A stretch of 32,000 nucleotides of DNA from Promethearchaeota archaeon (GTDB lineage: Archaea > Asgardarchaeota > Lokiarchaeia > Sigyniarchaeales > Promethearchaeaceae). The position numbers were made by a program, and so were the translations under genes. Every line of letters begins with the position of its first letter. The first letter of the stretch is position 1. Where the stretch lies: assembly GCA_016933055.1 (NCBI GenBank), contig JAFGBS010000002.1, forward strand, positions 150,001 to 182,000. The letters are read 5' to 3'. This document shows, one piece after another, positions 29,231-32,000 of the stretch. The notes beneath the pieces were generated by a model. The model searched no databases and was not told the DNA's origin. It saw nothing but the letters and a program-made list of their open reading frames with translations.

Positions 29231-30787
29231 TTATTCCGAATATCGAATATATTCATATATGAAGTCATTATGACGATATCCATGAAGTAAATGGGAATGA
29301 CTCCGTCTTCCGATTCGAATAAATCCCGCTTTTTCCAAGATTTTCCATGATGCAGTATTTTCTTCAGTAGCAGTCGCCTCTAAACGATAAAATTGGAATT
29401 TTTGCACTGCTATAGAAACCAATGCTTGAACAATCTCAGCTCCAAATCCTTTTCCAGCATATTTTGAATTTCCGATAAGATAAGATATTTCTGCTGTCTG
29501 ATTCCATAAAGTAGTATCATATATTGCCCCATAACCGATAGGAATGTGCGCGGATCGTTCATAGATCATCAATGCAATGCCGGAGATCGCTGAATTAGCG
29601 GGGTGCAACAAAAAATCTTTCACAAGCTGGTCTTTTGAAGTATACCCTTCGGGTTCCACCATATATTGGTTAATATGTGGATTATTGAACCAAGTATACA
29701 TAAGGTCTAAATGAGAATAGGTAATTGGGTAGAAGTCCAATCGAGAAGATTGAAAAAATGGAGAATTCGACTCTTTGTTATCCTTTTGATTCAATAGTTC
29801 CATATTGTACCGCTTTAGAGCTGAATTTAGAATCTTATGGATAAGATCCACGTAGGTCCATCCCATAGTTTTTGCAGACCTTACATATCCACTATCTATA
29901 TTGATACCAGGATTAGGATTTACCTCTAAGACATAGATCTCAGAACCACTTAATCGAAAATCCACTCGTGCGTAATCCCGACAACCTGTTATTTCATAGG
30001 CTTTTTTTGCGATATTGTTTATTTGTTCCGAAATTTTCGGTTCCAGATCTGCAGGGCACTTTCCATTTGTATGGGTAAACTTAAACGAATCCTCAATCCA
30101 TTTACTTTCATAGTCCACTATATGCGGAATAGACGAATCAAAATCAAAAAGAATTTCTGAAGCAGGGAGAGCTACAATATCAGAACCATTACCATAAAGA
30201 GCGATATTAATTTCTCTTCCATCAATATATTCTTCCACCAACGCAGGTTGTTTATATTGCTCTAAAATACGCAGAATTTGTCGATTTAACTGTGAGGAAT
30301 TATATACCACCGATTCCTCTGTTATACCAATACTTGCGTCTTCATGAAGAGGCTTAACGATTAATGGAAAAGATAATTCATCAACCAAGGATTCTGCTAT
30401 TGTATTAAATACTTGGAATCGAGGTGTTGGAATCCCATTTACCATCAAGAATTGTTTGGTACGGGCTTTATCAAGGCATAATCCAAGTGTGATATGGTCT
30501 GATCCCGTATAAGGAATGTGAAATAAGTCCAGAATCGCCGGAACTAAAGATTCAGCAGCCACATTCCCGCCAATTCCCTCACATAAGTTAAATATAACAT
30601 CAAAACGTGCTTCTGCAATATCAGAAAGAGTATCAGGGCTAATTCTTACTGGAATAACTTCGTGATGTGAGGAAAGTGCCGTATAAATATGATCTACTGT
30701 AGATACAATTTCATTATCCGCAATTTTATCTAGCTCAATTCCTCGCTCCAGTGTATCCACAAAATTATATATAAGTCCAATCTTCAT
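29231..30787 (-). CDS. D-Ala-D-Ala-ligase-like ATP-grasp enzyme fused to a C-terminal RimJ/RimL-type GNAT
   Basis: FNLCEG, IPYTGS, LDKARTK, FPLIVKP, VEEYIDGRE, DYESKW, ARVDFR, LEVNPNPG; then AEISYLIG...GKGFG...NTASWKILEKAGF. GGTGA 7 nt before ATG 30787. Confidence 0.9.
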   Translation of the reverse strand: MKIGLIYNFVDTLERGIELDKIADNEIVSTVDHIYTALSSHHEVIPVRISPDTLSDIAEARFDVIFNLCEGIGGNVAAESLVPAILDLFHIPYTGSDHITLGLCLDKARTKQFLMVNGIPTPRFQVFNTIAESLVDELSFPLIVKPLHEDASIGITEESVVYNSSQLNRQILRILEQYKQPALVEEYIDGREINIALYGNGSDIVALPASEILFDFDSSIPHIVDYESKWIEDSFKFTHTNGKCPADLEPKISEQINNIAKKAYEITGCRDYARVDFRLSGSEIYVLEVNPNPGINIDSGYVRSAKTMGWTYVDLIHKILNSALKRYNMELLNQKDNKESNSPFFQSSRLDFYPITYSHLDLMYTWFNNPHINQYMVEPEGYTSKDQLVKDFLLHPANSAISGIALMIYERSAHIPIGYGAIYDTTLWNQTAEISYLIGNSKYAGKGFGAEIVQALVSIAVQKFQFYRLEATATEENTASWKILEKAGFIRIGRRSHSHLLHGYRHNDFIYEYIRYSE

Positions 30788-30831
30788 CCAATATATCACC
30801 TGTATTTACCCAGAAATTTTAGAGAATCATC

Positions 30832-31965
30832 TTATTGCACCAGATTATAGCGTTTCAAGGCAGAATATAAGATCATTTTGATCATCTGTGAATACGACAA
30901 TCCAGCAACTTCACAGGCGTATGGAAAACGGGAATGGAACTCAGGATTAGGGTTTAATCCGGGCAAAGCATTGATTTCTAGTACATTTGGCACTCCTCGC
31001 TTACTAAGGCGGATATCCATTCGACACAAGTCTACACAATCCAATGCTTTATATGTCTTCAAAGCAATTCGCTCGATTTCTTGTCGTAATTTTTCAGAAA
31101 TGTTTGCAGGACAGGTTAATGGTGTGGCTCCTTGACCAGGGACATCATAGGTCCATTTAGATTCATAGGAATCGATTTTCGCATATCCAGGTGGAAGATG
31201 GTTAAAATTTACCTCAATAATCGGAAGAACTAGGGGAGGATCATTCCCCAAGATGCCTACGGTAAATTCCTTTCCCGGAAGAAATTCTTCCACTAGAACA
31301 GGAGCCCCAAATTCTTGGAATACCCAGTGTGTTTGTGCTCGTAATTCATCCAGAGAATGCACAACAGATCTATTGGTGATGCCAGCACTGGAACCTTGCG
31401 CGTCTGGTTTGATAATAAGTGGAAATTTCATCAAGGGTCCTAATAAGTCACTTGGGGCTCGAAACACTTGATATCGGGGAGTAGGAATATGATAAAATCC
31501 TAAAATCTCCTTAGTTCGACTTTTACTCAACGTAAGCGCTTGGGTTAATACACCCGATCCCGTATAGGGAATGCCCAGCATCTCTAATATAGCTGGTATG
31601 TGGGATTCTCGAGACTCCCCACGAATACCTTCTGCAATATTAAAAACAAAATCCACGGAACGTGTTTTTAATGCCTCAATAAAATCGCAATTTACCGGTA
31701 GTAATTCCACTTCGAATCCCCACGAATTTAATGCACTTTGAATGGCTTCAATGGTTTCCGCCTCATCATATTCCAATGCGACACTATTACTTAATGGAGT
31801 AGATACATCAGGACGGGCATTATATGCAAATCCGATGCAGTTGATGCCAAGTGGCTTCTGAAAAACAGACTCGGTTTTACTTGTAAAAATTGAGGTAGAA
31901 TGCGGTACGTGCACAGTTTTGGAATAGGTTGTGCGCGATGGGGATTGTAATGCATCAAAAGACAT
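30832..31965 (-). CDS. D-Ala-D-Ala-ligase-like ATP-grasp enzyme
   Basis: FNIAEG, IPYTGS, FPLIIKP..QGSSAG, VEEFLPGKEF, SYESKW, RMDIR, LEINALPG. Confidence 0.9.
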   Translation of the reverse strand: MSFDALQSPSRTTYSKTVHVPHSTSIFTSKTESVFQKPLGINCIGFAYNARPDVSTPLSNSVALEYDEAETIEAIQSALNSWGFEVELLPVNCDFIEALKTRSVDFVFNIAEGIRGESRESHIPAILEMLGIPYTGSGVLTQALTLSKSRTKEILGFYHIPTPRYQVFRAPSDLLGPLMKFPLIIKPDAQGSSAGITNRSVVHSLDELRAQTHWVFQEFGAPVLVEEFLPGKEFTVGILGNDPPLVLPIIEVNFNHLPPGYAKIDSYESKWTYDVPGQGATPLTCPANISEKLRQEIERIALKTYKALDCVDLCRMDIRLSKRGVPNVLEINALPGLNPNPEFHSRFPYACEVAGLSYSQMIKMILYSALKRYNLVQ

Positions 31966-32000
31966 CGTGTCTTAACAATCCCTCTTCAGGTAATACGGTA

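Follow-up and report, generated by a model that had tools for sequence, protein, structure and literature searches.

Tandem Ddl-like ATP-grasp ligases, one fused to an N-acetyltransferase, in a Promethearchaeota genome: a variant of a recurrent ligase cassette

A two-gene locus for two ligases and an acetyltransferase

The window analysed here, a stretch of 32,000 nucleotides from a Promethearchaeota archaeon (assembly GCA_016933055.1, contig JAFGBS010000002.1, positions 150,001 to 182,000), carries near its end two minus-strand genes, A and B, which encode ATP-grasp ligases related to Ddl (D-alanine-D-alanine ligase), the second with a GNAT-type acetyltransferase at its C-terminus. Together they are a variant of a recurrent A/B ligase cassette in which the GNAT has been replaced and fused to B, and the aminomutase has become unlinked. 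Throughout, G000 designates the source genome of the window, which spans C28:150001-182000 there, G159, G168 and G169 are related genomes, and L-numbers denote other loci or contigs.

Gene A (30832..31965, minus strand) is an open reading frame (ORF) of 377 aa that matches PF07478 (E 4.5e-34), its A-type ligase part being preceded by a Ser/Thr-rich N-terminal extension of about 40 aa. A spacer of 44 nt (30788..30831, minus strand) separates it from gene B (29231..30787, minus strand), an intact ORF of 518 aa from its likely ATG. The longest frame of B opens at a GTG (29231-30799, 522 aa); the true start is most likely the ATG at 30787 (MKIGLIYN), because a Shine-Dalgarno-like GGTGAT site in the spacer (30795-30800), which contains the GTG, ends 8 nt before it, and because all 32 homologues in the alignment begin there and the database copy has 518 aa. 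In the numbering of the 522-aa frame, the Ddl-like, B-type ATP-grasp part occupies residues 5 to ~335 (29795..30787, minus strand; PF07478, E 1.9e-37) and the GNAT residues ~353-522 (29234..29743, minus strand), with a match to PF13302 (Acetyltransf_3) at residues 353-493 (E 5e-20). The linker between the two (29744..29794, minus strand) is weakly conserved and variable in length in an alignment of 33 fusion proteins. The initial annotation, made by reading the stretch itself, had correctly recognized two adjacent, co-oriented and intact Ddl-fold genes, the second bearing a RimJ/RimL-type GNAT.

The short spacer and the common orientation suggest that A and B are co-transcribed. The run had been expected to continue past base 32,000, which is not so: ORFs mapped over G000:C28:178000-197999 reveal, upstream of A, an intergenic region of about 560 bp, presumed to hold the promoter, which begins in the last bases of the window (31966..32000) and extends to ~32526 in window numbering, and then divergent plus-strand genes (a 115-aa ORF, a helix-turn-helix (HTH) regulator, a LysE-type exporter, an SDR and others). 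The operon therefore consists of A and B only. Reading the upstream sequence for a KamA-like gene, as had also been advised, yielded none within 16 kb upstream of A, nor does KamA occur downstream of B over the remaining 29 kb of the window, where the adjoining gene is a convergent GyrI-like/DUF6144 gene.

A and B have the three-domain ATP-grasp fold of the Ddl family (DdlB, VanA), with which they are ~25-33% identical, and their closest solved structures are Ddl enzymes (E 1e-26 to 1e-33). In an alignment of 22 A-type and 36 B-type sequences, read column by column against true Ddl in DdlB numbering, the ATP-grasp core K97, K144, E180, E187, K215, R255, D257, E270 and N272 is invariant across both types and the window proteins; A retains K148, K186, E226, E233, K270, R315, D317, E330 and N332, and B retains K111, K149, E189, E196, K233, R278, D280, E292 and N294, meaning that all the residues of the ATP, Mg and acyl-phosphate chemistry are kept in both.

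Where they depart from Ddl is in overall score and in the substrate pocket. The best NCBIfam Ddl model (NF002378, cut-off 243) gives 182.9 bits for A and 177.1 bits for B, and TIGR01205 gives 148.7 and 156.1 bits against a cut-off of 245.65. The N-terminal GGxSxE strand of Ddl is replaced by YN...DNE in A and B. Residue Y216 has become W in 22/22 A-type and 36/36 B-type sequences (W271 in A, W234 in B), within the YESKW motif that was noticed from the outset (SYESKW at 266-271 of A, DYESKW at 229-234 of B), and H63 is replaced by E in both types (E112 in A). Pocket changes peculiar to the A-type are E68 to R (R119 in A) and L282 to R or C (R346 in A). In the B-type, G149-S150 becomes D-A (with A or G at position 150) and S281-L282 becomes (S/A)-G, so that B itself reads E153-D154-A155-S156 in place of the Ddl EGSS and D302-S303-G304 in place of (H/T)-S-L. 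That the substrate loops of the two paralogues differ, another early observation, holds as well (AQGSSAG at 189-195 of A, HEDASIG at 152-158 of B). The triad that binds the first D-alanine (E15-S150-Y216) was judged on S150 and Y216, since the E15 column is not reliably alignable; in these columns neither the triad nor the site for the second D-alanine (S281-L282) is matched by A or B. As read from the alignment, A and B are probably both active ligases with two different pockets, neither of them for D-alanine.

The phylogeny points in the same direction. In a tree of 99 ligase domains (quick IQ-TREE search, true Ddl as outgroup), A falls in the A-type clade and B in the B-type clade, both apart from true Ddl (support 99* for the outgroup as for the A-type clade), and neither enzyme groups with canonical Ddl. 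Together with the sub-threshold scores, this supports the initial proposal of a sequential two-ligase system with N-acetylation that lies outside peptidoglycan synthesis. The genomic setting also differs from that of Ddl: the genes neighbouring A and B are unrelated to peptidoglycan, with no mur or dcw context at the locus, and a search for the Mur ligase domain (PF08245, Mur_ligase_M) gave no match in G000, which is 91% complete, while the same search was positive in 12 of 14 control genomes. Public names of the homologues are generic, 'D-alanine-D-alanine ligase' at JGI and 'GNAT family N-acetyltransferase' at NCBI.

For the acetyltransferase part of B, the best named NCBIfam matches (PseH at 49 bits, AAC(6') and RimL) are all far below cut-off, and the AblB model TIGR03827 matches neither this domain nor the small GNAT of the parent cassette, its best match in the whole of G000 reaching 19.9 bits against a cut-off of 205. 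The motifs WFN(D/N), AEISxLIG and GKGxG are kept in 12 aligned fusion GNATs, and the AlphaFold model of the domain has a predicted local distance difference test (pLDDT) value of 89.9. Among solved structures, the folds closest to it are those of a lasso-peptide acetyltransferase, SpeG spermidine acetyltransferases, RimL and AAC(6'), all with a template modelling (TM) score of ~0.8 and 17-20% identity. This speaks for an intact acetyltransferase with an amine as substrate, but for no narrower assignment.

Cassette orthologues and the fusion lineage

When GTDB genomes were scanned with the fusion alignment, at least 80 loci came up, all with unfused B-type genes, and the counts that follow are among the matches listed. 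In most of the 80, a B-like gene that is 40-50% identical to B's ligase part comes immediately after an A-like gene (42-51% identity to A). Neighbour clustering finds a KamA-type lysine 2,3-aminomutase (radical SAM plus LAM_C) in 57/80 of these A-B loci and a 160-aa RimI-like GNAT (Acetyltransf_1) in 52/80, in agreement with the KamA and GNAT neighbourhood in anaerobic bacteria that the initial annotation had named. The carriers are anaerobic bacteria and some archaea (Ignavibacteriota, Bacteroidota, Desulfuromonadales, Aminicenantes, Aenigmatarchaeota and others).

By sequence, A and B are orthologous to this cassette's two ligases: they occur in the same A-then-B order, each sits in its own orthologous clade, and the KW omega-loop and the GSS versus EDAS loops are common to both, as is the presence of an acetyltransferase in the unit. 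The differences lie in the GNAT, which in the window belongs to another Pfam family (Acetyltransf_3 instead of Acetyltransf_1), has no BLAST similarity to that of the cassette and is fused to B, whereas the cassette GNAT is small and separate; in KamA, which is unlinked at the window; and in several pocket residues. The first reading had presented the locus as a candidate pathway in an archaeon; it is not particular to this archaeon, being one sub-lineage of a widespread cassette.

Within the class, a genome search found the B-GNAT fusion in 3/161 genomes only: G000 itself (100% identity to B), G159 of the same genus (65%) and G168 of the same family, a single contig of 4.32 Mb (53%). The last is probably Promethearchaeum syntrophicum, the name borne by the matching database protein. 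All three genomes have A directly upstream of B-GNAT, with unrelated flanks and no KamA nearby, the G168 copies lying at C1, about 1850178-1852887. A database search retrieved many full-length B-GNAT homologues with 40-66% identity in Promethearchaeota, Thermoplasmatota, Methanocellales and Wallbacteria. In metagenomes, a degenerate DNA pattern designed to be specific to the arrangement YARVD...EVNPNP...(65-75 aa)...WF picked out nine contigs with B fused to an Acetyltransf_3 GNAT. In all 7 contigs with upstream flank (L126, L144, L156, L158, L159, L172 and L198) an A-type gene directly precedes the fusion, and in L150 the fusion is preceded by a truncated ligase ORF. Hence the pair and its GNAT fusion, which by the initial annotation had to be conserved together for its proposal to stand, are kept as a unit at every locus with enough flank, in the three Asgard genomes as in 8 of the metagenome contigs. 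The gene order of L158 is KamA, A, B-GNAT, and in L126 (2-1804) KamA is fused to ligase A in one protein of 600 aa.

In the tree, 11 fusions with the Acetyltransf_3 GNAT form one clade within the B-type (Shimodaira-Hasegawa-like approximate likelihood ratio test, SH-aLRT, 97). Their A partners cluster together with a branching order that matches that of the fusions, and therefore the fusion arose a single time and the two genes have evolved as a pair. The KamA-linked L158 and L126 branch at the base of the fusion clade, so the loss of KamA linkage looks derived. Both have the pocket signatures of the window proteins (in B, E..E, EDAS, KW and G/C-N-x-D-S-G; in A, E-R-E, GSS, D210, KW and S-R), which is the best evidence, drawn from aligned residues, that the window pair would keep the same substrates.

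A second fusion concerns the small GNAT of the cassette. L132 and L160 encode identical proteins of 510 aa in which B is joined to an Acetyltransf_1 domain, so that B has been fused independently to two unrelated GNAT families, which speaks for a coupling of acetylation to the ligation by B. No other neighbours are conserved among the fusion loci except two kinds of genes, each found at two loci: deoxyhypusine-synthase-like (DHS-like) and pyruvoyl arginine decarboxylase (ArgDC) genes, and IPCT/DIPPS-like genes. In L156 (2596-8149), five overlapping genes make up an operon, namely A, B-GNAT, an NTP-transferase/CDP-alcohol-phosphatidyltransferase fusion (IPCT/DIPPS-like), a DHS-like gene and an ArgDC gene; a further IPCT/DIPPS-like gene lies near L200. 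DHS-like and ArgDC genes of the L156 type also occur in G168 (L120:5265-6865), on the other strand about 1 kb divergently upstream of A. The only DHS homologue of G000 is 34% identical and lies elsewhere in the genome.

Candidate product and competing explanations

We propose, with a probability of about 0.5, that A and B-GNAT form a self-contained module that builds a small N-acetylated amide or peptide containing beta-lysine by means of two ligations. The substrates, the order of the steps, the product and the role of the module are what we infer here. Each ligase would use ATP to convert a carboxylate into an acyl-phosphate and then join it to an amine, as Ddl does, with A and B forming two different amide bonds, while the GNAT fused to B would use acetyl-CoA to acetylate a free amine on the substrate or product of B. 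Beta-lysine is the most likely building block because the pair is orthologous to the ligases of a cassette made up of A, B, a small GNAT and KamA. In G000 it would be supplied by the single KamA of the genome, a long-form enzyme encoded on another contig than A and B (C16:70573-71808), within a lysine-fermentation cluster (G000:C16:67176-74793; L117:5177-12794) that also comprises the alpha and B12-binding subunits of a D-lysine/beta-lysine 5,6-aminomutase (kamD/E-type), two CoA-transferase subunits and a dehydrogenase-like gene. As all three carriers of the fusion encode KamA, beta-lysine should be available to each of them. To judge from the alignment, the acidic D154 and D302 gained by the pocket of B would suit a cationic diamino substrate, and the arginines R119 and R346 gained by that of A an anionic partner.

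Two known systems resemble parts of this scheme. In the AblA/AblB pathway to N-epsilon-acetyl-beta-lysine, found in methanogens and some bacteria, beta-lysine made by a KamA enzyme is acetylated by a GNAT, and the parent cassette likewise has KamA beside a GNAT; in the Pelobacter carbinolicus genome paper, KamA-GNAT genes are annotated as ablA/ablB (PMC3543383). The window unit differs in lacking an AblB-type GNAT and in having two additional ATP-grasp ligases, and its product must therefore carry extra amide bonds. The second system is Ngg, a bifunctional enzyme with an N-terminal GNAT and a C-terminal ATP-grasp domain of another subfamily, which makes the osmolyte precursor N-acetylglutaminylglutamine. 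As in B, an acetyltransferase and an ATP-grasp peptide ligase are united in a single chain, in Ngg leading to an N-acetylated dipeptide solute. By this description, to which the comparison is confined, B has the reverse order of domains; no AsnO-like amidotransferase adjoins the window pair, and no Ngg-type model is among the 16 NCBIfam matches of the GNAT part of B. A role like that of a compatible solute is the one we favour, although it is the weakest step of the scheme, suggested by analogy with N-epsilon-acetyl-beta-lysine and N-acetylglutaminylglutamine amide (NAGGN) and, weakly, by the IPCT/DIPPS-like genes.

Several observations weigh against the beta-lysine module. KamA is unlinked in the three Asgard genomes and, within the available flank, in 6/8 metagenome fusion loci. 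The KamA of G000 is the long catabolic form beside kamD/E, and since 12/14 genomes of the family encode a KamA, the three carriers included, with or without the pair, its co-occurrence with A and B does not discriminate. The fusion lineage and the bacterial cassette have different residues at several pocket positions (G276, N278 and S281 in B versus D, S and A; D210 and R282 in A versus Y and C), and by these residues the product may differ as well. The osmolyte role would draw on analogy and on an IPCT/DIPPS-like neighbour at two loci. Finally, no description of the A/B ligase pair, which is conserved over many phyla of anaerobes, of the cassette or of its product was found in the searched literature.

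More tentatively, and in our estimate with less than an even chance, the module of lysine-fermenting Asgard archaea, including the Promethearchaeum-like G168, would divert beta-lysine, the first intermediate of the fermentation, into a new acetylated beta-lysine peptide. If so, the peptide would represent a new class of solutes or signalling metabolites of archaea and bacteria, and the same chemistry would account for hundreds of KamA/Ddl-like cassettes in anaerobic bacteria. What is new here is that the GNAT step appears so closely coupled to B that fusion to B has happened independently for two unrelated GNATs, that the aminomutase could be supplied in trans by a catabolic pathway, and that the module occurs in what is probably a cultured Asgard archaeon, where its product is directly testable. 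Once that product is identified, a systematic misannotation would be corrected and a new beta-amino-acid metabolite might come to light.

Among the alternatives, the one that survives best, though we think it improbable, keeps the design of two ligases and a GNAT and changes the substrates: in the sub-lineage without KamA linkage, the ligases would couple another diamino acid, agmatine or a polyamine with an acidic amino acid, and the acetylated amide so formed would have no link to lysine metabolism. The absence of KamA from most fusion loci and the altered pocket positions speak for it, as do the translational coupling of the L156 pair to DHS-like and ArgDC genes, which recur upstream of A in G168, and the SpeG polyamine acetyltransferases among the nearest folds of the GNAT. 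Against this, the KamA-linked L158 and the KamA-fused L126 belong to the same fusion clade and have the pocket signature of the window, the DHS-like and ArgDC neighbours occur at just 2/12 loci, with only the distant and unlinked DHS homologue in G000, and the fold matches are generic at their 17-20% identity.

Rather less probable is that the module modifies a macromolecule, in which case, much as RimK or tubulin-tyrosine ligase does, it would attach one or more amino acids to an envelope polymer or to the side chain or end of a protein and then cap them with an acetyl group. The GNAT does belong to the RimJ/RimL Pfam family, with a lasso-peptide acetyltransferase and RimL among its top folds, KamA-type enzymes supply beta-lysine for the modification of elongation factor P (EF-P) in some bacteria, and DHS-like genes adjoin the pair at two loci. 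Nevertheless, a conserved candidate for the target gene is missing beside the pair in all of ~90 loci; the closest relatives by sequence, the Ddl enzymes, have free amino acids as substrates; there is neither a signal peptide nor a membrane context; and the module is found in archaea and bacteria alike, which have few such targets in common.

It is also doubtful, and more so than either of the foregoing, that A and B form an obligate heterodimer that makes a single amide bond, with one subunit structural or regulatory. Ddl enzymes are dimers, and such a complex would mirror the Ddl homodimer; A and B are inherited strictly together and their trees are congruent, and there are double Ddl-like proteins of ~700 aa (P0099-P0119). 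All catalytic residues are however kept in both paralogues, in the 22 A-type as in the 36 B-type sequences, and the two distinct pockets are each conserved, as expected of two reactions. Lastly, that one or both are ordinary D-Ala-D-Ala ligases for a murein-like wall is very nearly excluded, for although every one of the best matches in the database and the PDB bears the name Ddl, the two proteins score 177-183 bits against 243, have W at Y216, E at H63, R or G at L282 and, in B, A at S150, and lie in a 91%-complete genome with no Mur ligase domain, and the five bacterial genomes checked that carry the A-B pair (5/5) each encode a separate Ddl scoring 301-362 bits. A pseudomurein role was rejected together with canonical Ddl, on the sub-cut-off scores, the changed pocket columns and the missing Mur ligase.

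Neighbouring and related genes

On the opposite strand, at 1-2 kb upstream of A, are the HTH regulator and the LysE-type amino-acid exporter (32945-34668 in window numbering; L004:4946-6669), in a flank that is not kept in G159 or G168.

G000 encodes a third Ddl-like paralogue, C (363 aa), followed by a GNAT of 332 aa (G000:C2:328961-331345; L005:6962-9346). Behind the orthologue of C in G169 (64% identical; L272:2383-4570) come a short-form KamA and a CitMHS transporter. We considered C and the 332-aa GNAT as a conserved pair and rejected it, the GNAT being without an orthologue in 13 related genomes.

In a sister family of the same Asgard order, 21/25 sampled genomes match the query, and the matches that were fetched lie in a protein of ~650 aa. 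A protein of this size at L094:1483-3429 (minus strand) combines an N-terminal S-adenosylmethionine (SAM) methyltransferase domain with a C-terminal Ddl-like ATP-grasp, and similar loci are L097-L114. Five sister-family proteins of the ~650-aa type form a separate, long-branched clade in the tree.

The G+C content over 30001-32000 of the window, which covers gene A and the start of B, is 0.394, compared with 0.35-0.36 in neighbouring windows. This higher value, the patchy distribution of the fusion in the class and the unrelated flanks in the three genomes are compatible with a lateral acquisition or a relocation of the pair.

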